Shown piece after piece: positions 5,173-52,566 of a stretch of DNA of 64,000 nt (position 1 is the first letter of the stretch; each line of letters opens with the position of its first letter). The DNA is taken from contig QCHF01000002.1 of the NCBI GenBank assembly GCA_003279605.1, forward strand, positions 321,586 to 385,585. The letters are read 5' to 3'. The notes under the pieces are model-generated. The model worked only from the letters and a program-made list of their open reading frames with translations, ran no database searches and was not told the DNA's origin. This stretch comes from SAR86 cluster bacterium AG-390-O18. Lineage in GTDB: Bacteria; Pseudomonadota; Gammaproteobacteria; Magnimaribacterales; AG-339-G14. A program made the translations under genes and the position numbers.

Positions 5173-5814
5173 ATGATAAAAAAATTTTTACTTCTATCGT
5201 TTTTGGTAAGTTCCTTTAGCGTTTTTGCAGCTGCTGCTGGAGAAATGGCTGAGGCCAAACCAATGAAAAGAGGGGATGCAGAAAAGGGTTCAAAACTTGT
5301 TGGTACTTGTGTTGCTTGTCATGGCGTCGACGGAAATAGTGTTGTGGGCCAGTGGCCAACTTTAGCCGGCCAAAGAGAAAGTTATCTTTTTGAGCAACTT
5401 GAGCACATCAGAGATGAAGAGCGAGTTATCGCTGTTATGAAAGGCCTTTTGAATAATTATTCCGACAATGATTTGAGAGACATGGCGGCTTTTTACGCAA
5501 GCCAAAAAACCAAAGTCGGCCAAGCAGATGAAACAACTTTAGAATTAGGCCAACAAATTTATCGAGCTGGAAACTTGGCTTCAGGTGTACCGGCTTGTAC
5601 CGGTTGTCATGGGCCTGCAGGTAAAGGCTTAGAGTCAGCGCAATACCCAATGCTCGGCGGTCAAAAGGCCGAATACGTAGTCACAAGTTTAATTGCTTAT
5701 CAAACTGGAGAGAGAGCTATCGACGAACACGGCAAAATTATGCAAGGAATAGCTTCAAGACTTACCATCGAAGAGATTAGAGCGGTCGCCAATTATGTTT
5801 CAGGCCTTTACTAA
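5173..5814 (+). CDS. Diheme cytochrome c4
   Basis: Signal peptide; two CxxCH motifs (CVACH, CTGCH); conserved engB/c4/dsbA context. Confidence 0.92.
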   Translation: MIKKFLLLSFLVSSFSVFAAAAGEMAEAKPMKRGDAEKGSKLVGTCVACHGVDGNSVVGQWPTLAGQRESYLFEQLEHIRDEERVIAVMKGLLNNYSDNDLRDMAAFYASQKTKVGQADETTLELGQQIYRAGNLASGVPACTGCHGPAGKGLESAQYPMLGGQKAEYVVTSLIAYQTGERAIDEHGKIMQGIASRLTIEEIRAVANYVSGLY

Positions 5815-6418
5815 AAAACTTTTTCTAGTCTTTATCTTCTCAGTCAGTTCAGCATTGATTGCAGAAGATTATCAACCAGGTAAACATTACCAGATTTTAT
5901 CTGAACCCATCGCTACTAGAGACCCAAAAAAAATCGAAGTCATCGAATTCTTCTGGTTTGGGTGTGGACATTGTTACAGTTTAGAAAATCAACTTAATAG
6001 CTGGGAGAAGAAACTTCCTGTAGATGTAGATTTTTGGCGTTCACCTATTACTTGGAACGAAATGGCTAAAACGCATGCCAAATTATTTTATGCTTCGGAA
6101 TTTTTCAAAAATCCTGCAATCATTAGAGAAACTTTTTTATCTATTCATGCCAATCAACGCATGATGACTTCTGACAAAGAGTTACAACCTTTTTTTGCAA
6201 GCTTCGGCATTGCTGAAGATCAATACCAATCTTTATTTAATTCTTTTGCTATGCAGAACAAAATACGAAGAGCAGATACCTTTGGGCTCAAATATGAAAT
6301 CCGCGGAGTACCTGCTTTTATTGTCAACGGAAAATACAAAGTATCAGCTTCTCGACAAGTTGGAACTTCCGAACTTTTGGATGTTGTTGATTACCTTATT
6401 AACTTAGAAAGGAAATAA
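5795..6418 (+). CDS. dsbA: Thiol:disulfide interchange protein DsbA
   Basis: Signal peptide, EFFWFGCGHCY active site, GVPAFIVNGKY cis-Pro loop. Confidence 0.93.
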   Translation: MFQAFTKKLFLVFIFSVSSALIAEDYQPGKHYQILSEPIATRDPKKIEVIEFFWFGCGHCYSLENQLNSWEKKLPVDVDFWRSPITWNEMAKTHAKLFYASEFFKNPAIIRETFLSIHANQRMMTSDKELQPFFASFGIAEDQYQSLFNSFAMQNKIRRADTFGLKYEIRGVPAFIVNGKYKVSASRQVGTSELLDVVDYLINLERK

Positions 6419-6419
6419 T

Positions 6420-7247
6420 ATGAGATACAAATCAAACCTGTTCATTCCAGGCCATACGCTCGATCGTTTGGATCGAGGTCTTAATAGCAATGCGAGCGCT
6501 CTGATTATCGATCTTGAAGACGGTTGTCCAGAAGATAAAAAAATCGATGCACGTGAAGAATTGATTGGTCTCTTAAAAAAAGGGAACGTATTTACCAAAC
6601 CATTATTTGTCAGAGTCAACGATGCTATGAATGAAAATGGCAGACAGGATATTGATGCTTTATCGGATTTTGAAGATCAAATTGAGGCTATCATCCTTCC
6701 TAAAACACAAAGTTTTGATTTCTTAGCAACGCTTGCGCCAATGATCGCTTTTGAAAATAAACTAGTTCCTTTAATCGAGACGCCAAGAGCAGTCGATACC
6801 GTTACACAAATAGCAGCATTTAAAGGAGTTATCGGTCTATTCTTTGGAGCGGCTGATTTTTCTGCAGGCATGGGTTCTAAATTAGCTTGGGAACCGCTTT
6901 TGTATGCTCGGCATAAAGTTGCCTTGGCTGCTGCAATGTACAACCTCTTTACCATAGATGCACCATTTTTCTACATCGATAATGAAGAAGGACTTATAGA
7001 AGAGGCTGAAAAAGTGAAGAATCTGGGCTTTACAGGAAAAGCAGCAATTCATCCTTCGCAAATCGACTTCATCAATGATGCATTTGAACCTACCAAAGAA
7101 GAAAAAGAAGAAGCTAAAAAGGTTCTCGAGGAATACCAAAAGATGGATGGCGGAGCTGTTAAAATAGATGGCAAAATGGTCGACGAGCCCATTGCCGAAG
7201 CGATGCGTTTAAAATTATCTCTAGGAGATAAAGAAAAGGAGGACTAG
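6420..7247 (+). CDS. CitE-like (HpcH/HpaI) CoA-ester lyase; candidate (S)-citramalyl-CoA lyase
   Basis: IIDLEDG, LIETP, FFGAADF, WEPL, IDAPFF, GKAAIHPSQI, GKMVDEP motifs of the CitE family; recalled resemblance to Yersinia RipC. Confidence 0.8.
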   Translation: MRYKSNLFIPGHTLDRLDRGLNSNASALIIDLEDGCPEDKKIDAREELIGLLKKGNVFTKPLFVRVNDAMNENGRQDIDALSDFEDQIEAIILPKTQSFDFLATLAPMIAFENKLVPLIETPRAVDTVTQIAAFKGVIGLFFGAADFSAGMGSKLAWEPLLYARHKVALAAAMYNLFTIDAPFFYIDNEEGLIEEAEKVKNLGFTGKAAIHPSQIDFINDAFEPTKEEKEEAKKVLEEYQKMDGGAVKIDGKMVDEPIAEAMRLKLSLGDKEKED

Positions 7248-7248
7248 C

Positions 7249-7767
7249 ATGTCAAAGTCCAGCAAAGATTTAGGAAACAATAGATTTAGAGAATCCTTCG
7301 GTCGTTATTTTGAAGAATTTGAAGTAGGTCATGTATACGAACATCGTCCTGGCAGAACCATTACCGAGTCGGACAATACTTGGTTTACGCTTTTAACTAT
7401 GAATACTCATCCTCTGCATTTTGATAAGGAGTATGGTAAGGCAACAGAATTTGGGAAAAATTTAGTCAACAGTACGTTCACCGTATCTGTGATGGTTGGT
7501 ATGAGTGTGAGTGATATCAGTCAAAAAGCCATAGCCAATCTTGGCTGGACCGACATTGTGCTTCCACATCCATTATTTGTCGGCGATACTTTATATGCTG
7601 AGTCAGAAGTTTTAGAAACGCGTCTTTCCGAATCAAGGAAAAATGCTGGCATTGTCACTGTAAAAACAATTGGTAAGAATCAAAATGGGGATGTTGTAGC
7701 TTCCTTCAAACGCTCAGCTTTAATTCCAACCAAGGGACATGCTGTAGACGATAAGATCGATTATTAA
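7249..7767 (+). CDS. MaoC-like hot-dog hydratase; candidate itaconyl-CoA hydratase
   Basis: FEEFEVG..YEHRPGRTI..DN.W.TLL..N..PLHFD hydratase motif, ANLGW, HPLFVGDTLYAES; recalled resemblance to Yersinia RipB; AGGAGG SD. Confidence 0.8.
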   Translation: MSKSSKDLGNNRFRESFGRYFEEFEVGHVYEHRPGRTITESDNTWFTLLTMNTHPLHFDKEYGKATEFGKNLVNSTFTVSVMVGMSVSDISQKAIANLGWTDIVLPHPLFVGDTLYAESEVLETRLSESRKNAGIVTVKTIGKNQNGDVVASFKRSALIPTKGHAVDDKIDY

Positions 7768-7768
7768 G

Positions 7769-8938
7769 TTGAAGCAATCTTTAAAAGGCATAAAAGTTCT
7801 CGATTTAACCCACATGTTGGCAGGTCCTTACACGACTATGGTTCTAGCTGATTTGGGCGCCGAAGTTGTAAAAATAGAGCAACCAAAGACAGGCGACATT
7901 ACCAGAAATCTTTTGAAAGACGATCCAAAGTATTCTTTGGATGGGATCGGAGCATATCATCTAACTTTAGGTAGGAATAAAAAAAGCGTTGAATTGGATC
8001 TCAAATCTGAAGATGGCTCAAAACTTTTCAAAGAGTTAGTCTCTGTTGCAGATGTTGTTGTGGATAATTTCAGTCAAGGCGTAACGAAGCGTTTGGGTAT
8101 AGATCATCAAAGCTTGAAAAAAGTTAATCCAAAAATCATTACCTGTTCAATCAGCGGCTTCGGCGATACTGAAGTAAATCGACCTGCTTATGACAATCTA
8201 ATTCAAGGTTATGCTGGAGCAATGTCCATCACAGGAACAGATAAAGAAAATCCGGTTAAATCTGGCATCCCTATAGCTGACTTAGGTGCTGGACTTTATG
8301 CGGTTATTGGTATTTTAAGCGCTATACATTCTCGAGAAAAAAACGACTTAGGCGAACATGTGGATATTTCTATGCTCGATACCCAGGTAAGTTTATTGAC
8401 ATACATGGCTACTATGCATTTTCTTTCGGGCGAGAATCCTGAGCCGATTGGAAATCAACACATGAATCATGTGCCGTTCAATTCTTATAAAACCTCGGAT
8501 GGCTTTATTCAAATAGGAGTGGTTGCAGAAGATTTTTGGCCTAGCCTGATTGAAGCGCTCGATTTGAGACAATTGGATACTGAAGAAAATAAAGTAAGAA
8601 GTGGACGGTTAAAAAATAGAGAAAATATTGATCAGGCTGTGCAAGAAGTCTTCATTACAAATACGACCGAGTATTGGTTGAAAATATTACAAGAACACCG
8701 AGTCCCTTGCGGACCTATTAATACTCTTTCCGAAACTTTCCAAGATGCTGACCTCTTAAAAAGAAATATGATTGTTGAGGTTCTTCAAGATAGCGGTGCA
8801 TCCGTAAAAATGCCTGGTAACCCAGTAAAAATTTCTAATCATGATGAAGAATTCAGACGCTCACCAAAACTTGGCGAGCATACTTCTGAAATTTTTAAAG
8901 ATTGGTTAAATAAAGATATTTCAGTTGATCAAAATTAA
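7769..8938 (+). CDS. Family III (CaiB/BaiF) CoA-transferase
   Basis: LKGIKVLDLTHMLAGPYTTMVLADLGAEVVKIE, RNKKSVELDLK, catalytic-Asp region GIPIADL, SPKLGEHT; TTG start. Confidence 0.9.
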   Translation: MKQSLKGIKVLDLTHMLAGPYTTMVLADLGAEVVKIEQPKTGDITRNLLKDDPKYSLDGIGAYHLTLGRNKKSVELDLKSEDGSKLFKELVSVADVVVDNFSQGVTKRLGIDHQSLKKVNPKIITCSISGFGDTEVNRPAYDNLIQGYAGAMSITGTDKENPVKSGIPIADLGAGLYAVIGILSAIHSREKNDLGEHVDISMLDTQVSLLTYMATMHFLSGENPEPIGNQHMNHVPFNSYKTSDGFIQIGVVAEDFWPSLIEALDLRQLDTEENKVRSGRLKNRENIDQAVQEVFITNTTEYWLKILQEHRVPCGPINTLSETFQDADLLKRNMIVEVLQDSGASVKMPGNPVKISNHDEEFRRSPKLGEHTSEIFKDWLNKDISVDQN

Positions 8939-9006
8939 GACTTCCCACTCTTTTCAGGAACTATTTAGAGGATTAAACTTAATTGAATTATTCAGGAGAG
9001 AAAAAC

Positions 9007-10059
9007 ATGGATGCGGAAAAACTCAGTCAATTAACTCAAAAAGTCATTGGTGATGCAGCAGGAGCAGTAGGTTTACTGCTGGCATACATCGGAGACCAAT
9101 CAAAAGTTTATACAACAATGGACGAACTTGGCTCTTCAACTGTAAAAGAAATTGCAGATAAAGCAGGCCTTGATGAACGATACTTAAGAGAATTTCTCTC
9201 TTCCAATGCTGCTAATGGCTATGTAACTTATGAACCCGCAGAGGATAAATTTTCTCTTTCTCCAGAGCAAGCAGCTGTCTTTGCAAAAGATGGTGAGCCT
9301 ACTTGTTTGCAGGGTTACTTCCAAGCGATAGTTGGTCAATATGCAGAGCATGAAAAAGCCGTGGAAACTTTTCAATCAGGAAAAGGTAGACCATGGGGAG
9401 AACATCATCTGTGTTGTTTCTGTGGTACCGATAGATTTTTTAGACCAGGCTATGTTGGTAACTTAGTTAGTAATTGGATTCCGTCTTTATCTGGAGTTGA
9501 AGATCAATTAAAAGCTGGTGCCAAGGTAGCAGATATCGGTTGTGGTTTAGGCTCTACGACTATCATCATGGCTCAGACTTACCCCAATTCAACAATTCAT
9601 GGATACGATTTTCATGGTCCTTCCATTGAAGAGGCTAGTGCAAGAGCCAAGGAACTTGGACTAACCAACATTGAGTTTCACGTATCGGATGCCAGAGAGA
9701 TTCCAGATAATGGATATGACTTTGCCTGCATTTTTGATGCTCTTCATGACATGGGAGATCCTGTTGGTGTTGCCAATCATATTAAAAATGTTCTTTCCGA
9801 TGATGGTACATTCATGTTGGTCGAACCCGCTGCAGCAGATAATTTAGAAGGTAACTTGAATACTTTTGGCGGTTTAGCATATGGTTTTTCAACAATAGTT
9901 TGTGTTCCTACTTCTAGAGCTCAAGATGTGGGCCTTTGCTTGGGCGCACAGGCCGGTCCAAAAAGGCTTACGGATGTTTTGAATTCTGCAGGATTTCATC
10001 ACGTTAGAGAGTCAGCTCGAACTGGAACAAATATGGTTTTCGAGGTTAAGCAAGCTTAA
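9007..10059 (+). CDS. Class I SAM-dependent methyltransferase with N-terminal winged helix (Rv2258c-like)
   Basis: ADIGCGLG SAM motif, FDALHDMGDP, N-terminal GLDERYLREFL; start placed at ATG 9007 behind AGGAG. Confidence 0.8.
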   Translation: MDAEKLSQLTQKVIGDAAGAVGLLLAYIGDQSKVYTTMDELGSSTVKEIADKAGLDERYLREFLSSNAANGYVTYEPAEDKFSLSPEQAAVFAKDGEPTCLQGYFQAIVGQYAEHEKAVETFQSGKGRPWGEHHLCCFCGTDRFFRPGYVGNLVSNWIPSLSGVEDQLKAGAKVADIGCGLGSTTIIMAQTYPNSTIHGYDFHGPSIEEASARAKELGLTNIEFHVSDAREIPDNGYDFACIFDALHDMGDPVGVANHIKNVLSDDGTFMLVEPAAADNLEGNLNTFGGLAYGFSTIVCVPTSRAQDVGLCLGAQAGPKRLTDVLNSAGFHHVRESARTGTNMVFEVKQA

Positions 10060-11381
10060 TGCCAAACGAAAACAATTTTCTTGAAAAAGCTCTGCTTGTT
10101 CAAGTTGAAACTACAAAAGTCAGGCGTATTTTAAATTTTGAAAACTCTTTTGAAGAGTTTAAAGATTTAGCCCGTTCAGCAGGAGCTAACGTATTAGGTG
10201 AAATCAAAGGAAAGCAGGAACTTGCATCTCCCAGATATTTCATTCAAAAAGGGAAACTGGAAGAAATCAAGCAAGAAGTGCACAAAAACAAAATTAGTTT
10301 GGTTATTTTTAATCATGCTTTATCGCCATCACAAGAAAGAAATATCGAGCGGTATCTGAAAGCAAGGGTTTTGGATAGAACTGGATTGATTTTAGATATT
10401 TTTGCTAGACGTGCTTTTAGTCACATTGGAAAACTTCAAGTTGAGCTTGCTCAATTATCCCACTTATCTACCAGACTGATTAGAGGCTGGAGTCATTTAG
10501 AAAGACAAAAAGGAGGAATTGGCTTGCGAGGACCAGGAGAAACGCAACTGGAAACAGACAGAAGATTAATCGGTAATCGGATCAAAGCTCTTAAGAAGAA
10601 ACTTACAAAAAGTCACAATCAAAAATCTTTAAATAGATATGCAAGAAAAAAAGGCAAAAACAAAATCGTAGCATTAGTTGGCTATACGAATGCAGGTAAA
10701 ACAACTCTTTTTAATGCTTTGACGGGCGGCGTAGAATACAAAGCCGATCAGCTTTTTGCAACTCTAGATTCAGTAACTAGGAAAAACCTAAGTCCAGGTA
10801 GTAGAGCAATACTTTTTACCGATACTGTAGGTTTTATTTCAGAAATTCCTACAGAATTGATCGAATCCTTTAAAACCACACTGGACGATCTTAGATCTGC
10901 TGATTTGTTGATTCACTTAGTAGATGTGAATGACCCAGAAAAAGAGCTAAAACAAAAAGAGGTTATAAAAATTTTGAAGGATTTAAACTTAAAAGATATT
11001 CCTCAACTTTTAGTTAATAACAAGATAGATAATCTTTCTGCCGCGAAACAACAAGAATTGGAGTTTCAAAATCCCAAGGATCTTTATGTTTCTGCAGAAA
11101 AAAATATTGGGATCGATTCCTTGAAAGAAAAAATAATAGAACAAACCAGTAATGGGCTCTTCAAAGGCTGGGTTTCAGTTGATCATAGGGCTTCTGCGAT
11201 ACGCGCGAAACTCTATGAAGAAGGATGCGTTAGAGATGAGATTGGTAAAGATACAGAATGGCATCTAAAGTTAAATGTCGGCAATGATTTTCTTACAGAG
11301 TCTATTAATGCATCGGAATTAAAAATCTTATTCAATGAAGAACAAGAAAGCTTTGAAATTGGTGAGCCAGGTAGAACCTGA
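10059..11381 (+). CDS. hflX: GTPase HflX
   Basis: LDIFARRA, GIGLRGPGETQLETDRR, G1 GYTNAGKT, DQLFATLD, DTVGFI, NKID. Confidence 0.97.
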   Translation: MPNENNFLEKALLVQVETTKVRRILNFENSFEEFKDLARSAGANVLGEIKGKQELASPRYFIQKGKLEEIKQEVHKNKISLVIFNHALSPSQERNIERYLKARVLDRTGLILDIFARRAFSHIGKLQVELAQLSHLSTRLIRGWSHLERQKGGIGLRGPGETQLETDRRLIGNRIKALKKKLTKSHNQKSLNRYARKKGKNKIVALVGYTNAGKTTLFNALTGGVEYKADQLFATLDSVTRKNLSPGSRAILFTDTVGFISEIPTELIESFKTTLDDLRSADLLIHLVDVNDPEKELKQKEVIKILKDLNLKDIPQLLVNNKIDNLSAAKQQELEFQNPKDLYVSAEKNIGIDSLKEKIIEQTSNGLFKGWVSVDHRASAIRAKLYEEGCVRDEIGKDTEWHLKLNVGNDFLTESINASELKILFNEEQESFEIGEPGRT

Positions 11382-11436
11382 ATCTGCGACCTTTTGCTCC
11401 TGAGGCAAATGTTCTGATCCGCTCAACTACTGGCTC
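11360..11436 (-). tRNA. Atypical tRNA or tRNA-like gene: anticodon CAG on a short-variable-arm, tRNA-Arg(CCG)-like body
   Basis: GAGCCAG-TA-GTTG AGCGGATCA GAAC-A-TTTGC CTCAGGA GCAAA-AGGTC-GCAGA TTCAGGT TCTAC-CTGGCTC-A-CCA. Perfect 7-bp acceptor and 5-bp anticodon stems, encoded CCA; deviations in D and T arms. Function uncertain. Confidence 0.8.
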
Positions 11437-32061: not shown

Positions 32062-32964
32062 ATGAAAGAAGAACCTCCAAGTATAAGTGCTCAACCTGAA
32101 AAGTTGGGCTTAATACAACGCATTAAAAGCTTCTTTAGGGATTTCCACATCAGAATTTCCTTCAAACCATCCAATCAAAAAGAGTTAACCTCTGTTTTAA
32201 GGGACGCAGAGGAAAACAACCTTATTGATAAAGGAGTTTTGGATATGATGGAAGAAACCATTGATTTTTCGTCCACTCCAGTAAAAGAAGTGATGGTGCC
32301 AAAAACCCAAGTTATATCCATCAAGGAGACTGAAGGTTTGGCTGAATTCTTACCTAGAATTTTAGAATCAGCACACTCTAGATTTCCAGTTTTTGATGAG
32401 CCTCAAGAAAAAATAAAAGGCATTCTGCTAGCAAAAGATTTATTGAAATTTGGTCCCGGTCTATTGGGACAAGATGAGAATTTAAGTTTTGATTTGTCTC
32501 AGATTTTAAGACCAATTAATTTCATTCCTGAAAGTAAAAAAATCAACATACTCTTGGAGGAATTCAAAACGAATAGAAGCCACATGGCTGCAGTTGTTGA
32601 TGAGTTTGGTGAAATCAGTGGGATTGTTACTATTGAAGATGTTCTAGAAGAAATTGTTGGAGAAATTATAGACGAAACCGATATCAGCGAATCTGAAGAT
32701 ATTATTCAATTAACTGAAAATGAGTTTAATGTTTCAGCCTTGACTGAAATTGAGACTTTTAATGATCGCTTTTCTTCGAATTTTGAAGCAACAGATTTTG
32801 ATACGATTGGCGGAATTGTCTTAAATTCCTTTGGAAAAATTCCTTTAGTGAACGATTCAATCGAAATACAAAATTTTCACTTTACGGTTCTAGCCGCAAA
32901 TAAAAGACAAATTTTAAAGCTGAGAATAAAGGTTTTAGAAACTATTTCTGAAGAGCTTAACTAG
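32062..32964 (+). CDS. corC: CBS-domain Mg/Co efflux protein CorC (YbeX)
   Basis: SAHSRFPV, HMAAVVDEFG, VTIEDVLEEIVGEI, DTIGG; after ybeY. Confidence 0.9.
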   Translation: MKEEPPSISAQPEKLGLIQRIKSFFRDFHIRISFKPSNQKELTSVLRDAEENNLIDKGVLDMMEETIDFSSTPVKEVMVPKTQVISIKETEGLAEFLPRILESAHSRFPVFDEPQEKIKGILLAKDLLKFGPGLLGQDENLSFDLSQILRPINFIPESKKINILLEEFKTNRSHMAAVVDEFGEISGIVTIEDVLEEIVGEIIDETDISESEDIIQLTENEFNVSALTEIETFNDRFSSNFEATDFDTIGGIVLNSFGKIPLVNDSIEIQNFHFTVLAANKRQILKLRIKVLETISEELN

Positions 32965-33859
32965 AATTTTCCTGAAGAATTTTCTTTAGCTCATTTCCAA
33001 GTAATTCAACATCTTGGACACCTCCATAATTAGGCCTTATGACTATAGCTATTTCTCTATGAGGACCAGATTCATTGAGATGTAAATTTTTTAGATCTGG
33101 ATTACCTGCCATCAACTGACTAATGGCCATCTTCGGCACCAAAGTAGTACCCATGCCGCTTTTTACAAATTGTACTAGGGTATTTAAAGAAGAAGCTTTG
33201 AAAGAAATATTGCTTGCTTGCTTCGTCATTTTGCATGCGGACAGTATATGATCTTTAAGACAATGTCCCTCTTCAAGTAACAGTAATTCAGATCGATCAA
33301 GTTCATTAGCTTTTATTTCTTTATCCTTGGAGCGAGCGTCATTTTTCTTAGTAATCCAAAAAAAGTCTTCTGCCCAAAATTTTATGGGTATCAAACCTTG
33401 AAGCTTGAAGGGCAGAGCAAGAATGGCCATATCCAAATCGCCATTTTTGACTTTATTAATGAGATCGTTTGACTGACCTTCAGAGATATTTAAATTCAAT
33501 TTAGGAAATTTAATACTCAAAGACTTTATAGCATGAGGCATTAAGAAGGGGCTTATGGTTGGGATGACTCCAAGAGATATTGGGTGCGAAAGTGGTTGTG
33601 AATTGTTTTCAGAAATTTTTTGAATATCTTCCAGTTGTATCTTAATACTCTTGTATTTCTTTAAAATTTCTTCACCCAATTTAGTAACAATTACTTTTTT
33701 ATTGTTTCTTTCAAAAATTTCAAAACCCAATTGTTTTTCCATTTCGGATATAGCATTACTCAAAGTGGAAGCGGAGACAAAACACTTATCTGCAGCATTT
33801 TTAAAGTGCATCTCTTTTTCAACCGCCAAGGCATAATTTATTTGCTTGATACTAACCAT
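32957..33859 (-). CDS. oxyR: LysR-family peroxide sensor OxyR
   Basis: LysR HTH; LLLEEGHCLKDHILSAC with both redox cysteines; divergent from katG. Confidence 0.88.
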   Translation of the reverse strand: MVSIKQINYALAVEKEMHFKNAADKCFVSASTLSNAISEMEKQLGFEIFERNNKKVIVTKLGEEILKKYKSIKIQLEDIQKISENNSQPLSHPISLGVIPTISPFLMPHAIKSLSIKFPKLNLNISEGQSNDLINKVKNGDLDMAILALPFKLQGLIPIKFWAEDFFWITKKNDARSKDKEIKANELDRSELLLLEEGHCLKDHILSACKMTKQASNISFKASSLNTLVQFVKSGMGTTLVPKMAISQLMAGNPDLKNLHLNESGPHREIAIVIRPNYGGVQDVELLGNELKKILQENSS

Positions 33860-33965
33860 TTATATTCGATTTTTTAGAACATTAAATAAGAAATATACAT
33901 ATTTAACAATATATAAAAAGATAGTTTAATATGAGAAGAATTTGTTTTTATATGAGGTGAAATAG

Positions 33966-36112
<2,147 letters not shown>

Positions 36113-37457: not shown

Positions 37458-38812
37458 TAACTATCTAGAAAACCACTGATCTCATAAATATCTGCTGGCG
37501 ATAAAATTCCTGAAGCTAATTTTAATTCTAAAGTGCTAATGATGTAATCGTACTTAGCAGCAATGAGATCTCTTTGTGCTGAAAAATAGTTTTTTTCTGC
37601 ATTTAATAAATCAACAATATTTCTAGTATTTTCTTCATATCCAACCATTGTTGCTTTAAGCGCAAAGTTTGAAGATTTTAAAGAAGCTTTCCTAGCATTC
37701 ACATTGGCTAAATTAGTTAATACCGAAGTAAATTTTGTTTTTACATCCCTAATTACCAATCTTTCTGCAAGAAGTTCTTGCTGATCTGCTTGCTCTGCTA
37801 AGGCTTTAGCTTCTCTTCTTTCTGCATGCAATAAGCCGCCTGTAATAATTGGCCAATTGAATTCCAAACTGTATCTAGTTTGCTCCACACCATTTGGGCC
37901 ATAAGTTACTGGTGGATTCGTTGCAGGATTGAAGCCAACAATACCTCTTGAGTTGTTTTGAGTAATGCTCGCAACCAAATCTATATCTGGAAAATGAGAG
38001 GCAAGCTTTGCCTGAGAATTTTTCTTAGCTGCTTTTGCGTTTAACTTAGAGGCTTTTAAGGTAAAACTATTTCCCAAAGCCAATTCAGCCCACTGATCTT
38101 GTTCGATTGGATCGGGTTTGCTTACGGGAAAATCATCATTTAAATCTTTTATATCAGGCGCATCTCCAATGATTGAAATCATTGCCTCTCTCGCAAATTC
38201 AAGTTGTCCTTCAGAAGCAATTTTTGAAACTTTAGCTAAATCATAGAATGCCTGAGCCTCTTGGAATTCAGATTTAGACGAGACTCCTTCTTCATAGAGT
38301 CGTTTGGTTCGATCTCTTTGTTTTTTAATAGATTGTTCTTCCAATCTAGCAACTTCAAGATTTTTTTTAGCTTTTAGAAGATTAAAATAAACGTTGGAGA
38401 TTCTGATAATGGTTTCTTGTTGTGAAAGTGCAAATTTTGCCTCTGCAGCATCGCCCAATGCTTTACCCTGAGAAAATTGAAACCATGTATCAACTCTGAA
38501 GATTGGCTGAATTAAATTAGCTGAATAATAATTAGAGTTGCTGCCTTGGGTATCAGTAAACAAAGCAGCATTTGATTCGGTATTTTTATTTTCATTCCAT
38601 GTAGTTCCCGCTCTAAGAGAAAGCTTAGGCAGCAAGCCTGCCATGGCTTTGTTTTTAATTTCTTTATTAGCATTGAATGTCGCTTCATCAATTTTCAGCT
38701 GCGGATCGTTCGTAAGGGCAAGCTCATAGACGTCTGCCAAAGTTGCAGAATGACCATAGGAGCTTAAAAATAAAAGGGATAAAGTTATTAGAAATGTTGT
38801 AAATTTTTCCAA
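37457..38812 (-). CDS. tolC: TolC family outer membrane protein
   Basis: Signal peptide, L.DVY.LAL.NDP, G.RNIVDLLNAE; start moved to TTG 38812 behind GAGGAG. Confidence 0.9.
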   Translation of the reverse strand: MEKFTTFLITLSLLFLSSYGHSATLADVYELALTNDPQLKIDEATFNANKEIKNKAMAGLLPKLSLRAGTTWNENKNTESNAALFTDTQGSNSNYYSANLIQPIFRVDTWFQFSQGKALGDAAEAKFALSQQETIIRISNVYFNLLKAKKNLEVARLEEQSIKKQRDRTKRLYEEGVSSKSEFQEAQAFYDLAKVSKIASEGQLEFAREAMISIIGDAPDIKDLNDDFPVSKPDPIEQDQWAELALGNSFTLKASKLNAKAAKKNSQAKLASHFPDIDLVASITQNNSRGIVGFNPATNPPVTYGPNGVEQTRYSLEFNWPIITGGLLHAERREAKALAEQADQQELLAERLVIRDVKTKFTSVLTNLANVNARKASLKSSNFALKATMVGYEENTRNIVDLLNAEKNYFSAQRDLIAAKYDYIISTLELKLASGILSPADIYEISGFLDS

Positions 38813-38897
38813 AAGAAGCTCCTCTTGAGTTAAATTATGCTTTGGAATGACATGATAATTTTTTGTAACCTTTTTTACCATTAAAATAATCAAATAA

Positions 38898-40655
<1,758 letters not shown>

Positions 40656-46998: not shown

Positions 46999-48165
46999 TT
47001 ACTTAGCTCTCTGATTGAAACGTCTGCCAATCATTGCTGAAGCAATATTTACTTTTTGAACATCAATTGTTCCACCAGCAATTCCCCAGCCAAAAGAATC
47101 TCTGACGCGTCTTTCCATTTTGTATTCTTTGTTGAATCCATAACCGCCCATAAGCTGCATCGCATTCGTTGTGACCTCTCTTGCGATTTCATTGGCAAAA
47201 CATTTTGCAGTACTTGATTCCAATATATCTGGCAAACCATTGGCGGCATTGAAAACTGCACGGTGGATCAAAAGTCTAGACGCTTCCACTCTAATGAGCA
47301 TGTCTGCAAGTTTGATTTGAACTGCTTGAAAATCAACCAATTGCTTACCAAATTGCTCCCTCTCTTGAACGTATTCTTTGACATAGTCTAAGGCTGCTGC
47401 TGCTTGAGATAGAGCCATTGTCGCATTACCACATCTTTCTAAATCAAAGGTTTCCATTAATTTTTTGAACCCATCTTCAGGCTCAACCAATAAATTATCA
47501 ATTGGAACTTCTACATTATCGAAGTAGATATCTGCTGAAGGTATTCCACGCCAACCCATCAGGCTTTCACTATTTCCAAAAGTCAGCCCGGGTGTATCGA
47601 TATCAACAAAGACGGCACCAATACCTTTTGCAGCAGGAGCATCAGACATTCGGGCATAAACTACATAACCATCAGAATGACCGGCACCTGAACACCAACG
47701 TTTGGTTCCATTTATTACAATTTTGTCTCCTTTGATTTCAGCTTTGGTCTTTAAATCTGTTAAACCAGTTCCAGCATTGGGTTCTGACATACTTACAGCT
47801 ACCACCATCTCGCCCTTACAAACTTTGGGGATCACTCTTTTCTTTAGTGCATCTGAACCAAAATGCTCTATGACTTTTACAGGACCTGCATTTGCTTCAA
47901 ATACTGGCCAACCTACTGCGGAAGATATCTTTCCAAATTCTTCGAGAACTATGATCGCATCAAGATTGGAGAGCCCAAGTCCACCGTACTCTGTTGGTGT
48001 ATTGATTCCTAAAAAGCCCAATTCGCCAATTTTTTTTAGTACATCCTTTGGCACAGGATTTGCTGATTCTTCCATTTCATCAGCCAATGCTGTTAATTCA
48101 TTTTGAGCAAAATCTCTTGCGACTTTTTGCAACTCTAATTGTTCTGAAGTTAATTTAAAATCCAT
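46999..48165 (-). CDS. Acyl-CoA dehydrogenase family flavoprotein
   Basis: MSEPNAG, NGTKRW, REQFGK, FQAVQ.KLADM, GGYG, RDS...IAGGT; start ATG 48165. Confidence 0.9.
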   Translation of the reverse strand: MDFKLTSEQLELQKVARDFAQNELTALADEMEESANPVPKDVLKKIGELGFLGINTPTEYGGLGLSNLDAIIVLEEFGKISSAVGWPVFEANAGPVKVIEHFGSDALKKRVIPKVCKGEMVVAVSMSEPNAGTGLTDLKTKAEIKGDKIVINGTKRWCSGAGHSDGYVVYARMSDAPAAKGIGAVFVDIDTPGLTFGNSESLMGWRGIPSADIYFDNVEVPIDNLLVEPEDGFKKLMETFDLERCGNATMALSQAAAALDYVKEYVQEREQFGKQLVDFQAVQIKLADMLIRVEASRLLIHRAVFNAANGLPDILESSTAKCFANEIAREVTTNAMQLMGGYGFNKEYKMERRVRDSFGWGIAGGTIDVQKVNIASAMIGRRFNQRAK

Positions 48166-48193
48166 AATGAAAGGATAATTATACACATTGAGT

Positions 48194-49921: not shown

Positions 49922-51265
49922 ATGAAAATATATGTCTTAGGTATTTGCGGAACTTTTATGGGCGGACTTGCACAGTTGGCAGCAGAAAAAGGCATTAAAG
50001 TTTCTGGTTGTGATGAGAATGTATATCCTCCCATGGACCAAGTCTTACTCTCAAATGGCATAACGATTGACGAAGGATACAATCCAAAAAATTTACCTAA
50101 AGATGTTGATTTAGTTGTTGTGGGGAATGTCATAGCTCGTGGTAATCCCATGATTGAAGAAATACTTAATAAAGGTATAGACTTCATTTCTGGTCCAGAG
50201 TTTTTATCAAAGTACTTATTATCTAAGAGACATGTGGTAGCTATAAGCGGAACTCATGGTAAAACTACTGTATCTTCAATGGTTACAAAAGTACTTCTAG
50301 ATAATGGAGTAGATTGCGGTTACTTGATTGCTGGGCGAGCGAAGGATTTAGATGCAACCGCATCATTAGGAACTCATGAATTTTTCATCATAGAGGCTGA
50401 CGAGTATGACACTGCTTTTTTTGATAAAAGATCAAAATTTATTCACTATCACCCCAAAACCCTTTTAATCAACAATCTTGAATTTGATCATGCTGATATT
50501 TTTAGCAACCTTGGCGATATTAAAAAGCAATTTCATCATCTATTGAGATTGATGTCTTCCAAATCAACATTAATTTTTCCTGAGCATAACATCAATATTA
50601 AAAATGTCATGAAAATGGGTTTTTACAGTCAAAGCCTTCCTTTCAATACCAAATTTGCCAAAGGCTGGTATGCCAAGAAAGTAACGGCAGATTCATCTAA
50701 ATTTGATATTTATAAAGACAAAAAGAAAAAAGCGTCAATAAGTTGGTCATCTATTGGAGAACATAGTTTGCAAAATGGATTAGCTAGTTATTTAGTTTGC
50801 AAATCGTTAAGTCTGAAATCAAAAGATATTGCAGAGTCACTCTCGAAGTTTAAAGGGGTAACGAGAAGAATGGATCTGGTTGGAGACAAAAGCAGCGTGA
50901 AAGTTTATGATGATTTCGCACATCATCCCACTGCAATAAAATATACTTTGGAAGGTTTGAGAAAAAAAGTTGGAAGCGAGAAGATAATTTGTCTTCTGGA
51001 AATGCGGTCCAATACGATGCTTTCAGGATATCATGACAAAAAAATTCCAAAGGCTGTTGCTTCGGCCGATCAGGTATTTATTTTTTCAAAAGACAAGAAA
51101 CAAATTTCAGCATTGGAAAGTGAAAGTAAAAATATCGAAGCATGTTCCACTACCCAAGAATTTTTGAGAAAGCTTTCTAGCTTAGATTTAGACAATACTC
51201 ACCTGATTTGTTTATCTAATGGCTCTTTCGATGGTATCCACCAAGCCATTTTAGAAAGAATTTAA
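49922..51265 (+). CDS. mpl: Murein peptide ligase
   Basis: ILGICGTFMGG pattern, GTHGKTT, EADEYDTAFFDKRSKF, NNLEFDHADIF, DDFAHHPTAI; start ATG 49922. Confidence 0.95.
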   Translation: MKIYVLGICGTFMGGLAQLAAEKGIKVSGCDENVYPPMDQVLLSNGITIDEGYNPKNLPKDVDLVVVGNVIARGNPMIEEILNKGIDFISGPEFLSKYLLSKRHVVAISGTHGKTTVSSMVTKVLLDNGVDCGYLIAGRAKDLDATASLGTHEFFIIEADEYDTAFFDKRSKFIHYHPKTLLINNLEFDHADIFSNLGDIKKQFHHLLRLMSSKSTLIFPEHNINIKNVMKMGFYSQSLPFNTKFAKGWYAKKVTADSSKFDIYKDKKKKASISWSSIGEHSLQNGLASYLVCKSLSLKSKDIAESLSKFKGVTRRMDLVGDKSSVKVYDDFAHHPTAIKYTLEGLRKKVGSEKIICLLEMRSNTMLSGYHDKKIPKAVASADQVFIFSKDKKQISALESESKNIEACSTTQEFLRKLSSLDLDNTHLICLSNGSFDGIHQAILERI

Positions 51266-52566
51266 TCTAAATTAATCCAACTACCATGAAATCCAAAAGG
51301 CACTCTTTGAGGCAAAGTGACTCTGGCAAGCGGGGCTTCTGAAAAATTCTGAGCATCCAACACAACGAAATCGCTTAAATCAGTTGTTTTGTCGTAAACA
51401 AAACCAACTACATAACCGTCATCTTCTGATTTAGCATTTTTCTTAGGTATAAAAACTGGCTCAGCTGCCTGACAACTTTCACCAAAATCATGAGCGATGG
51501 TTTTACTTTTTTCAAAATCATGTTTGAAGTAGTTATTAAGCCTCCCGTCGTTGAGTAAGTATCCAAAACGATGTTGTTTGCCATCATAATCTGGATGAAC
51601 CCTAGAAAATTCCATAGGCCTATCATCCAACATTTCTTCGGAGCATGTTTTAGCTTTTGGATCTAGAATCCACCTTGTAAGAAAAGGTTTTTGCCCCATG
51701 GGAAGAGGATTTTCAAAATCAAATAGCCTCTCGTATCGACAAAAGTCTAGGACAACTTGACCATTTTCATTTTCATACGAATTAACTATATGAAATAAAA
51801 ACCCTGGATTAACCTCTATCCAGATAATTTCATCGGTTTTTTTGCTTTGTAATCCTACTCTGGAAGTATGTTTGTCATTCCACACTACTGGATAATCTCC
51901 ACCAATGGGATTATTGTCATCGTCTCTTCTACCAAGATTAAAAGTTACTGGCAGGTCAAAAATAAGAACATAATTTTTGGTAATAGCACAATCATGAACC
52001 ATCGGTCTGCTTGGTGTTTCTATAATTTGATCTTTGATGAGTTTTCCCTGGCTATCTATAGTCACATAATGGACTTGTCCTAATCCATTTACATATTCCC
52101 CAAAATCATAACTTACGGCATGCATTTCACCAGTATCTGAATCAATTTTTGGGTGAGCAGTAAATCTTTTATCATCTGCTGCTGGAAAAGGCTCTTCTTC
52201 AAGAAAATTCATCTCAGAGTCCATAATTACGGGTGATACGCCTCCTTCGACTAAAGCATAAATTTTTTCACCGTGTTTAAGCACATGAGTATTGGGACCA
52301 AAGCCAAAAGGCGAGGTTACAAATTTATTCTTATACCAAAGAGCCTTTCCATCTTCTACTCTTATGCCATGAATCATACCGTCACCAAAAAAAGGATGAT
52401 AATTTTCATGGTTTATTGGCTCTTTTGGATTAGGTCCGTTTCTGAGAAATAGACCTGATAGTTCTCTAGGTAACTCACCTGTAATTTTTAATTCAGTTGT
52501 AGAAGTTTCTTCTACAGGAAACCAGTTTCCAGATAAAAATTTATTTTTGCTTTCTCTTTTAGTCAT
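51262..52566 (-). CDS. Carotenoid oxygenase (RPE65/CCO) family dioxygenase
   Basis: LFLRNGPNP, GDGMIH, four Fe-binding His motifs (FTAHPK, MVHDC, LFHIVN, GFHGSW), EPVFIP, EDDGY. Confidence 0.9.
   Translation of the reverse strand: MTKRESKNKFLSGNWFPVEETSTTELKITGELPRELSGLFLRNGPNPKEPINHENYHPFFGDGMIHGIRVEDGKALWYKNKFVTSPFGFGPNTHVLKHGEKIYALVEGGVSPVIMDSEMNFLEEEPFPAADDKRFTAHPKIDSDTGEMHAVSYDFGEYVNGLGQVHYVTIDSQGKLIKDQIIETPSRPMVHDCAITKNYVLIFDLPVTFNLGRRDDDNNPIGGDYPVVWNDKHTSRVGLQSKKTDEIIWIEVNPGFLFHIVNSYENENGQVVLDFCRYERLFDFENPLPMGQKPFLTRWILDPKAKTCSEEMLDDRPMEFSRVHPDYDGKQHRFGYLLNDGRLNNYFKHDFEKSKTIAHDFGESCQAAEPVFIPKKNAKSEDDGYVVGFVYDKTTDLSDFVVLDAQNFSEAPLARVTLPQRVPFGFHGSWINLD

Follow-up and report, generated by a model that had tools for sequence, protein, structure and literature searches.

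Degradation of itaconate to pyruvate and acetyl-coenzyme A (CoA) has been characterised in two bacterial prototypes. In Yersinia pestis, and also in Salmonella (pathogenicity island SPI-13), the system consists of RipA, RipB, and RipC, while the Pseudomonas aeruginosa genes PA0878-PA0883 encode Ich, Mcd, a glyoxalase, an MmgE/PrpD protein, Ict, and Ccl, with IctPQM as TRAP transporter. In mammalian mitochondria, SUGCT, a hydratase, and CLYBL act in succession, and the Mcl/Mch/Mct(/Meh) enzymes of the 3-hydroxypropionate bi-cycle and of the haloarchaeal methylaspartate cycle draw on the same three superfamilies for C5 dicarboxyl-CoA esters. The present analysis deals with a window of 64 kb, that is, the whole stretch of 64,000 nucleotides taken from contig QCHF01000002.1 of SAR86 cluster bacterium AG-390-O18 (Magnimaribacterales), and therein with a trio of intact open reading frames (ORFs) on the + strand encoding a lyase, a hydratase, and a CoA-transferase. 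Judged from sequence comparison, the trio would constitute a minimal CoA-dependent route from a C5-dicarboxylate to pyruvate and acetyl-CoA, a reading to which a probability of about 0.6 is given. The three genes are the following.

6420-7247, + strand: lyase, a CitE/HpcH-type beta-hydroxyacyl-CoA lyase of 275 amino acids, ATG start
7249-7767, + strand: hydratase, a single-domain MaoC protein of the RipB type, 172 amino acids, ATG start
7769-8938, + strand: family III CoA-transferase, SUGCT-like, 389 amino acids, TTG start

The initial step would be catalyzed by the SUGCT-like transferase, which, via Asp171, would shift CoA from succinyl-CoA onto a branched C5-dicarboxylate. Itaconyl-CoA (or mesaconyl-C4-CoA) would then be converted to (S)-citramalyl-CoA by hydration/isomerisation at the RipB-type hydratase, and eventually the Mg2+-dependent, CitE-type lyase would cleave (S)-citramalyl-CoA into pyruvate and acetyl-CoA. 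Substrates, CoA donor, and direction of flux in this scheme are predictions.

The lyase belongs to the CitE/HpcH superfamily, as is evident from its HpcH_HpaI domain (PF03328; 1.7e-28, 99.9 bits against a cut-off of 25 bits), a match to C-C_Bond_Lyase (6e-16), the Mg2+- and substrate-binding residues, and the C-terminal lid aspartate. The residues D31, E33, D34, R65, E120, D146, H211, and P212, which are invariant in 36 CitE-type members including CLYBL and Mcl, are all kept, as is the lid residue D255 within an MVDEP motif. Among the NCBIfam models, RipC_Ccl matches best (209.5 bits), followed by citE (119 bits) and the haloarchaeal malyl-CoA lyase (61.7 bits at a cut-off of 500). The best match in the PDB is the RipC structure of Y. 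pestis, 3qll, with 151.6 bits, followed by P. aeruginosa Ccl (99.8), Methylobacterium Mcl (96.4), human CLYBL (91.6), Mycobacterium tuberculosis CitE (78-84), and Chloroflexus Mcl (38), the Mcl structures taken together spanning 38-96 bits. Identity is 36.7% to Yersinia RipC over the full length and 31% to P. aeruginosa Ccl; the RipC and Ccl query sequences were rebuilt from PDB alignments, and the corresponding Yersinia (L035) and P. aeruginosa (L036) loci were then fetched. In a neighbour-joining tree of 36 sequences with 200 bootstraps, the SAR86 lyases form a clade with 100% support, which joins a marine sister clade with 91%. The enzyme is probably an (S)-citramalyl-CoA lyase of the RipC/Ccl type.

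For the hydratase, Pfam returns MC_hydratase (5.5e-24) and MaoC_dehydratas (4e-20), and RipB_Ich is the best NCBIfam model (215.4 bits, covering model positions 8-175 of 175), while the haloarchaeal mesaconyl-CoA hydratase model gives 85.6 bits against a cut-off of 560, with half of the model matched. The protein is 52% identical to Yersinia RipB over its full length and has the motifs EHRPGRT, DN.WFTLLT.N...H.D, ANLGW, and GDTLYAES in common with it; to P. aeruginosa Ich there is no meaningful similarity (23.7% over 76 amino acids). The best PDB matches are the double-domain beta-methylmalyl-CoA dehydratases 8hgn and 4e3e, because, to our knowledge, no solved RipB structure exists that could compete with them. 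From these relatives, the protein would probably be an (R)-specific enoyl-CoA hydratase acting on itaconyl-CoA or mesaconyl-C4-CoA.

The transferase matches the Pfam family CoA_transf_3 (PF02515) over model positions 1-366 of 366 (3.6e-114, 382 bits), and both the full-length fold and the catalytic aspartate place it in family III. This aspartate is D171 in the motif IPIADLGAG; it aligns with Asp212 of SUGCT (PMC10871334), and no transferase in the comparison lacks it. The best NCBIfam models are succinate-glutarate CoA-transferase (290.6 bits) and succinyl-CoA:mesaconate CoA-transferase (279.6 bits), the protein scoring far below both cut-offs, while the Mct model for the intramolecular transferase gives 65 bits against a cut-off of 725. 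The closest solved structures are 10uh (245 bits, 37% identity) and human SUGCT (244 bits, 34%); identity amounts to 31% to P. aeruginosa Ict (PaIct) and to 27-33% to the enzymes from the sphingomonad clusters described below. In a small neighbour-joining tree with few references, the enzyme stands apart from the clade of PaIct and its Azospirillum counterpart and joins SUGCT/10uh weakly, with 33% support. Orthology to Ict was ruled out on the grounds of this separate clade and the 31% identity. The closest characterised relatives use succinyl-CoA and C5-dicarboxylates; SUGCT is promiscuous for C3-C8 dicarboxylates (PMC10871334) and makes itaconyl-CoA out of itaconate in erythroid cells (PMC9153040). 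Since PaIct is distant, SUGCT and 10uh are nearest, the catalytic aspartate is kept, and SUGCT makes itaconyl-CoA, the best label for the protein is that of a SUGCT-like succinyl-CoA:dicarboxylate CoA-transferase, probably with C5-dicarboxylates as acceptors.

An original prediction, made from the DNA letters, had described the trio as a CitE-like lyase, a single-domain MaoC hydratase, and a family III transferase with its catalytic aspartate, encoded by genes 1 nt apart. The spacing is confirmed by single-base spacers, read from the sequence, at 7248 and 7768, and the enzyme classes by Pfam scores far beyond chance together with D171. The lyase and hydratase motifs that it had named occur in the real Yersinia proteins (GAADMAAD...WEPL...IDAPFF in RipC; YRE.SG...EHRPGRTV...ANLGW in RipB), and the claimed resemblance to RipC and RipB is real, these being the closest curated families. 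Equally correct was its statement that Yersinia uses a family I type transferase (RipA of L035, AcetylCoA_hydro) and P. aeruginosa the family III enzyme Ict (L036).

When prokaryotic genomes were scanned, one for each species, relatives of the lyase with 96-100% identity were found at the same locus in SAR86 single-cell genomes and metagenome-assembled genomes, so that the predicted origin from a streamlined bacterium was right; a second set of SAR86 genomes has lyases with approximately 80-82% identity. The gene order dsbB-polA-engB-cytochrome c4-dsbA-lyase-hydratase-transferase recurs in SAR86 with variations, and cytochrome c4 and dsbA stand ahead of the lyase in all SAR86-like loci examined. 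Clade A, which is the SAR86 clade of the window itself, has the full trio. So has clade B, on contigs of 1.2-1.3 Mb, near genome length; lyase, hydratase, and transferase are here 70%, 85%, and 82% identical to those of the window, compared with 71% for PolA, 69% for cytochrome c4, 53% for DsbA, 52% for EngB, and 58% for HflX. An intermediate clade (L037) shows the same order up to the hydratase, where its short contig ends before the next gene. Clade C comprises six SAR86 single-cell genomes (L015-L020; e.g., L015:7995-10021) with a lyase 82% and a transferase 66% identical to those of the window. A deeper sister lineage (L032, L038, L039) has a lyase (39-42%) and a hydratase (73-74%) behind dsbA; following the hydratase there are genes for an RPE65 carotenoid oxygenase, an AMP-forming acyl-CoA synthetase, and a nitroreductase (L032:7001-12111; L038 and L039 alike; also L044 and L047). 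The lyase is the one gene of the trio that none of the examined lineages lacks at this position, and the hydratase is the best conserved of the three wherever it is present.

The trio is old within SAR86, vertically inherited, and under purifying selection, with no less conservation than its housekeeping neighbours show. Vertical inheritance follows from a G+C content (0.39) that matches the flanks, from the kept synteny, and from a degree of conservation as high as in the neighbours or higher; on the same grounds, recent horizontal transfer into SAR86 was rejected. The prediction had called the cluster a mosaic; of a recent acquisition in SAR86 there is no sign, the trio being syntenic and no less conserved than polA, dsbA, and engB, and the term belongs to deep history, that is, to the question which activating enzyme became attached.

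In four of the clade B long contigs (L024, L027, and L031, which are polished, and L028, an NCBI assembly), polA, dsbA, cytochrome c4, or the CoA-transferase is split or shortened; the transferase of L024, for instance, is split into 94 and 301 amino acids. Since other clade B genomes are intact, assembly indel errors are the more likely cause, rather than pseudogenes. The gene downstream of the trio (8983-10059, + strand; likely true start ATG 9007) encodes an S-adenosylmethionine-dependent methyltransferase with an Rv2258c-like winged-helix N-terminal domain, whose match to the trans-aconitate methyltransferase models is very weak (about 25 bits). It was ruled out as a part of the module, as it is confined to clade A, its place being taken in clade B by an NAD-dependent epimerase/dehydratase, while clade C has neither. 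The locus of clade C is also without hflX.

Outside SAR86, the closest hydratases are 62-72% identical, the closest lyases about 38%. A metagenome scan with the hydratase yielded 80 loci (L041-L120) of 62-98% identity, 72 of them not from SAR86; since many contigs among them are short, counts of neighbours are lower bounds. Next to the 72 hydratase genes there were acyl-CoA dehydrogenases in at least 47 cases, family III transferases in 27, CitE-type lyases in 23, GntR regulators in 13, and PrpD in 12, while a RipA-type transferase was seen at none of the 72 loci, many of them on short contigs. The strong conservation (62-72%) of a RipB-type hydratase of 172 amino acids over soil, freshwater, and marine contigs is unusual, with an acyl-CoA dehydrogenase gene as the most frequent direct follower (47 of the 72 loci), and this appears to be a widespread type of cluster so far without characterisation. 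In Sphingomonas and Peristeroidobacter, the loci encode a lyase (about 38% identity), a MaoC hydratase (65-67%), an acyl-CoA dehydrogenase, two family III transferases, GntR, and two MmgE/PrpD proteins. The same set of genes makes up the itaconate/methylsuccinate cluster known from pseudomonads (PMC12290011), but here the enzymes are of the RipB/RipC type. At one Azospirillum locus, the genes for a RipC-like lyase and a PaIch-type hydratase occur together with those for an acyl-CoA dehydrogenase and a family III transferase. The types of lyase, hydratase, and transferase recombine freely, RipB-type hydratases going mostly with family III transferases, and because of these mixed clusters the published view that itaconate degradation comes in two variants (PMC12290011) does not do justice to the diversity among environmental bacteria.

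Upstream, the trio is linked to two genes identified by Pfam and NCBIfam, and a ribosome-binding signal is found inside it.

5173-5814, + strand: dihaem cytochrome c4 gene
5795-6418, + strand: DsbA gene
7236-7243, + strand: Shine-Dalgarno sequence AAGGAGGA of the hydratase, read from the sequence, within the 3' end of the lyase gene

The ORFs of cytochrome c4 and dsbA overlap by 20 nt, and the dsbA stop is separated from the lyase ATG by a single base at 6419. The Shine-Dalgarno sequence is strong and lies just 5' of the hydratase ATG, an arrangement noted as translational coupling. Cytochrome c4 and dsbA would probably be in one transcription unit with the trio, as context only and outside the pathway. 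A pattern scan gave 8 promoter-like sites against 17.7 in shuffled sequence, i.e., fewer, and was overall no better than for shuffled sequence; the same scan found no terminator-like site on the + strand within the trio or just downstream of it, and the limits of the operon are not fixed by it. An Rfam scan of the whole window returned a single match, a tRNA. Contigs from four marine metatranscriptome runs together cover all three genes, spanning the lyase/hydratase junction (7151-7649) as well as the hydratase/transferase junction (7657-8037 and 7606-7911), while a contig that starts within dsbA at 5898 ends at 6427 and thus reaches just 8 nt into the lyase. These contigs are supportive in that they fit transcription of the trio; they fall short of proof for a single transcript.

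Several observations weigh against the proposed route. The lyase and the hydratase stay below the equivalog cut-offs of their best models (209.5 against 375 bits for RipC_Ccl, NF038242; 215.4 against 340 bits for RipB_Ich, NF038241, on which Yersinia RipB scores 376), and the SAR86 lyases, as a clade of their own, attach among RipC, Ccl, CLYBL, and Mcl with bootstrap values of 20-30%. The transferase is orthologous to no proven bacterial itaconate CoA-transferase, given its 31% identity to PaIct. In clade C, where the transferase follows the lyase after a few bases and both genes are intact, there is no hydratase at the locus, and the sister lineage, with the dsbB-polA-engB-cytochrome c4-dsbA synteny kept, has no adjacent family III transferase. 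By the annotation of the window, neither a dicarboxylate transporter nor a regulator lies near the trio, and no report of itaconate as a marine dissolved metabolite, or of its being tied to SAR86, was found in the literature searched. Finally, the metatranscriptome contigs are unstranded and assembled, expression can hardly be gauged from their depth, and DNA carry-over is possible. As to the lyase cut-off, calibration of the RipC_Ccl model gave 460 bits for Yersinia RipC, 222 for the Sphingomonas homologue, 200-219 for four SAR86-like clades, and 158 for P. aeruginosa Ccl. Since the last enzyme is biochemically proven, the cut-off delimits a narrow enterobacterial group, and failing it therefore speaks against orthology with enterobacterial RipC, not against citramalyl-CoA lyase activity.

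Itaconate is the most likely substrate and the best single guess, held less firmly than the general C5-dicarboxylate reading; (S)-citramalate and mesaconate might replace it or be used as well. It is preferred because lyase and hydratase are nearest to RipC and RipB, and because SAR86 is reported to rely on beta-oxidation, the glyoxylate shunt, and the 2-methylcitrate cycle (PMC11582366), the lyases of the latter two being the classical targets of itaconate. Citramalate and mesaconate stay in play because clade C is without a hydratase at the locus and the transferase family is promiscuous; in clade C itaconate cannot be the substrate unless a hydratase is encoded elsewhere. By naming itaconate, the original prediction overstated what sub-cut-off scores, a hydratase-less clade C locus, and a transferase-less sister lineage allow.

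The intact lyase-transferase pair standing alone in the six clade C genomes would also suit a core function in the use of hydroxy acids, with (S)-citramalate or L-malate being activated by the transferase and cleaved by the lyase, and the hydratase being a mere accessory through which some clades could use mesaconate or itaconate as well. The presence of the lyase at this position in all lineages examined fits this explanation, as does the activation of (S)-citramalate by P. aeruginosa Ict (PMC12290011); it is nevertheless considered unlikely, since the hydratase is the most conserved enzyme where present (85% versus 70% for the lyase), the sister lineage retains lyase and hydratase without the transferase, the lyase scores 62 bits on malyl-CoA lyase models versus 209 on RipC, and the hydratase of clade C could lie elsewhere in the genome. 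Human SUGCT, formally a succinate-hydroxymethylglutarate CoA-transferase, is with 244 bits among the best solved relatives of the transferase, and this would suit a route for leucine and hydroxymethylglutarate (HMG) like that of M. tuberculosis Rv2499c/Rv2498c, in which the MaoC protein would make (R)-HMG-CoA from 3-methylglutaconyl-CoA, the lyase would cleave it, and the SUGCT-like enzyme would activate HMG. In M. tuberculosis, a CitE-like lyase beside a MaoC hydratase reportedly serves leucine catabolism and is said to be bifunctional with citramalyl-CoA (Wang et al. 2019, in PNAS), which counts in favour of that route. The lyase, however, is much closer to RipC than to the M. tuberculosis CitE structures (151.6 versus 78-84 bits), no gene for isovaleryl-CoA dehydrogenase or methylcrotonyl-CoA carboxylase is linked, and the only acyl-CoA dehydrogenase of the window is a generic one 38 kb off, which leaves the HMG route improbable.

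The combination of lyase, hydratase, and family III transferase parallels Mcl/Mch/Mct, and all three haloarchaeal methylaspartate-cycle models are matched (279.6 bits for the transferase, 85.6 for the hydratase, 61.7 for the lyase). The trio might accordingly be viewed as a part of the 3-hydroxypropionate bi-cycle or of the methylaspartate cycle, which would interconvert beta-methylmalyl-CoA, mesaconyl-CoA, mesaconate, or citramalyl-CoA for assimilation or production of glyoxylate. The beta-methylmalyl-CoA dehydratases among the structural matches of the hydratase would suit this, albeit with no RipB structure in competition. Such a module is regarded as improbable: the scores lie far under those on RipB and RipC and under the family cut-offs, with 65 bits on the Mct model (cut-off 725) and 38 bits for Chloroflexus Mcl; mesaconyl-C1-CoA hydratases consist of two fused domains with about 350 amino acids in all, whereas the SAR86 protein is a single domain of 172; and SAR86 already possesses the glyoxylate shunt.

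With the C5-dicarboxylate route as the preferred reading, a physiological role can be proposed. Isocitrate lyase and methylisocitrate lyase are the classical targets of itaconate. For SAR86, beta-oxidation has been described as central to carbon metabolism, and a glyoxylate shunt and a complete 2-methylcitrate cycle are reported (PMC11582366), with which the earlier argument that itaconate matters as an isocitrate lyase inhibitor is in agreement. The trio would probably be made constitutively, for scavenging or detoxification; such a standing role fits because it lies directly behind cytochrome c4/dsbA, has no regulator or transporter, and is found in a cell that needs isocitrate and methylisocitrate lyases to live on lipids. 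A purely protective function, in which a constitutive, vertically inherited module co-transcribed with cytochrome c4-dsbA would shield these two lyases from itaconate-type antimetabolites, is a doubtful extension. If true, surface seawater would have a so far unrecognised pool or flux of these compounds (itaconate, mesaconate, or citramalate), or a chemical antagonism exerted through them, and the defence would have been retained in a genome of about 1.2-1.3 Mb, as judged from the near-genome-length contigs of clade B. Shielding of the B12-dependent methylmalonyl-CoA mutase from itaconyl-CoA was considered a weak candidate: although SAR86 is a B12 auxotroph, the 2-methylcitrate cycle handles propionyl-CoA without B12.

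In the surface ocean, SAR86 ranks with the most abundant heterotrophs, and its very small genome makes retained genes informative. Because the trio is conserved in position across several families, at least as conserved as PolA, and present in ocean RNA, branched C5-dicarboxylates would matter to SAR86, be it as a source of carbon or because they inhibit the glyoxylate shunt, which its fatty-acid metabolism requires. Neither the chemistry nor the enzyme families are new, and JGI annotation labels some SAR86 proteins as itaconyl-CoA hydratase and relatives as (S)-citramalyl-CoA lyase; the pathway is also known in non-pathogenic soil bacteria (PMC12290011), so that its occurrence outside the pathogen context is not the novelty it had been taken for. 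The modestly interesting part is the ecological setting. Conservation across SAR86, the minimal form on the cytochrome c4-dsbA unit, the lineage-specific SUGCT-like transferase, and the variants without hydratase or transferase are absent from the SAR86 papers searched, and the paper on the SAR86 isolate with its 10 supplementary files makes no mention of itaconyl, citramalyl, or the KEGG numbers (PMC11582366). With a cultured SAR86 isolate in existence (PMC11582366), the idea is testable, and it would gain in interest should compounds of the itaconate type turn out to be true currencies or antimetabolites in seawater.

The rest of the window is of housekeeping character (polA, lysA, dapF, metK, ahcY, tkt, pgk, fba, tatC, ubiE/ubiB, katG, thiC, parE/parC, argD, mrdA/rodA, and others). 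The katG gene (33966-36098) lies in the only GC-rich stretch (0.44 versus about 0.34 in the flanks), with a divergent gene for a LysR-type regulator (32957-33859) beside it, and the two (32957-36098) may be an acquired oxidative-stress module. A thiC gene (38898-40655; region 38400-40655) is present, while most SAR86 genomes have been described as lacking thiamine synthesis (PMC3358033); no thiamine pyrophosphate riboswitch was detected upstream of it, even at a permissive threshold, and the start of its ORF abuts or overlaps a divergent outer-membrane efflux gene. A tRNA-Leu(CAG) gene (11360-11436, - strand) overlaps the final approximately 20 bases of the hflX ORF (10059-11381). Unlinked to the trio are genes for an RPE65-family carotenoid oxygenase (51262-52566, - strand), possibly for retinal supply, and for the generic medium/short-chain acyl-CoA dehydrogenase (46999-48186, - strand), which was rejected as a partner of the trio for its type and its distance of 38 kb.

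Summarizing the comparison with known systems, the SAR86 trio shares with Yersinia RipABC the families of the lyase (36.7% to RipC) and the hydratase (52% to RipB) as well as the gene order, ripC-ripB-ripA corresponding to lyase-hydratase-transferase. It is not of the Yersinia type, since the third gene encodes CoA_transf_3 and no AcetylCoA_hydro gene is present, while RipA (L035; PF02550/PF13336) is a family I type enzyme; Yersinia in addition has an adjacent LysR regulator, which SAR86 lacks. With P. aeruginosa, the trio has in common a family III CoA-transferase, a CitE-type (S)-citramalyl-CoA lyase, and, if the proposed route is right, the overall chemistry (PMC12290011). PaIch, however, is a protein of 275 amino acids from an unrelated hydratase family without an NCBIfam match to RipB, PaIct belongs to another clade at 31% identity, and Ccl is 31% identical to the SAR86 lyase. 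Neither a PaIch-type hydratase nor an Ict orthologue nor adjacent genes for acyl-CoA dehydrogenase, MmgE/PrpD, glyoxalase, regulator, or TRAP transporter are found with the trio, whereas P. aeruginosa has both LysR and TRAP genes, so that the trio is not of this type either. The Mcl/Mch/Mct models give 62, 86, and 65-280 bits at cut-offs of 500-725 (61.7/500, 85.6/560, and 65/725 for the individual members), which excludes membership; Mch is a double-domain hydratase and Mct an intramolecular transferase of a different subfamily, both unlike their SAR86 counterparts. In the mammalian mitochondrial route, the hydratase step is catalyzed by a crotonase-type enzyme, not by a MaoC protein. Its transferase SUGCT (34%, 244 bits to the SAR86 enzyme) forms itaconyl-CoA (PMC9153040), and its citramalyl-CoA lyase CLYBL is a CitE-type enzyme of the same superfamily, although farther from the SAR86 lyase (91.6 bits) than RipC. 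The original prediction of a hybrid holds insofar as the trio is a third combination relative to the two characterised prototypes; as a special feature of SAR86 it does not stand, with family III transferases at 27 of the 72 loci outside SAR86, RipA-type enzymes at none of them, and the mixed cluster of Azospirillum. The sphingomonad-type clusters likewise pair a RipB-type hydratase with family III transferases, which are from other branches of the family (27-33% to the SAR86 enzyme). Compared with these clusters, SAR86 has shed the acyl-CoA dehydrogenase, PrpD, and the regulator, and by its gene content the trio can be seen as their stripped-down version, equipped with a SUGCT-like transferase of its own.

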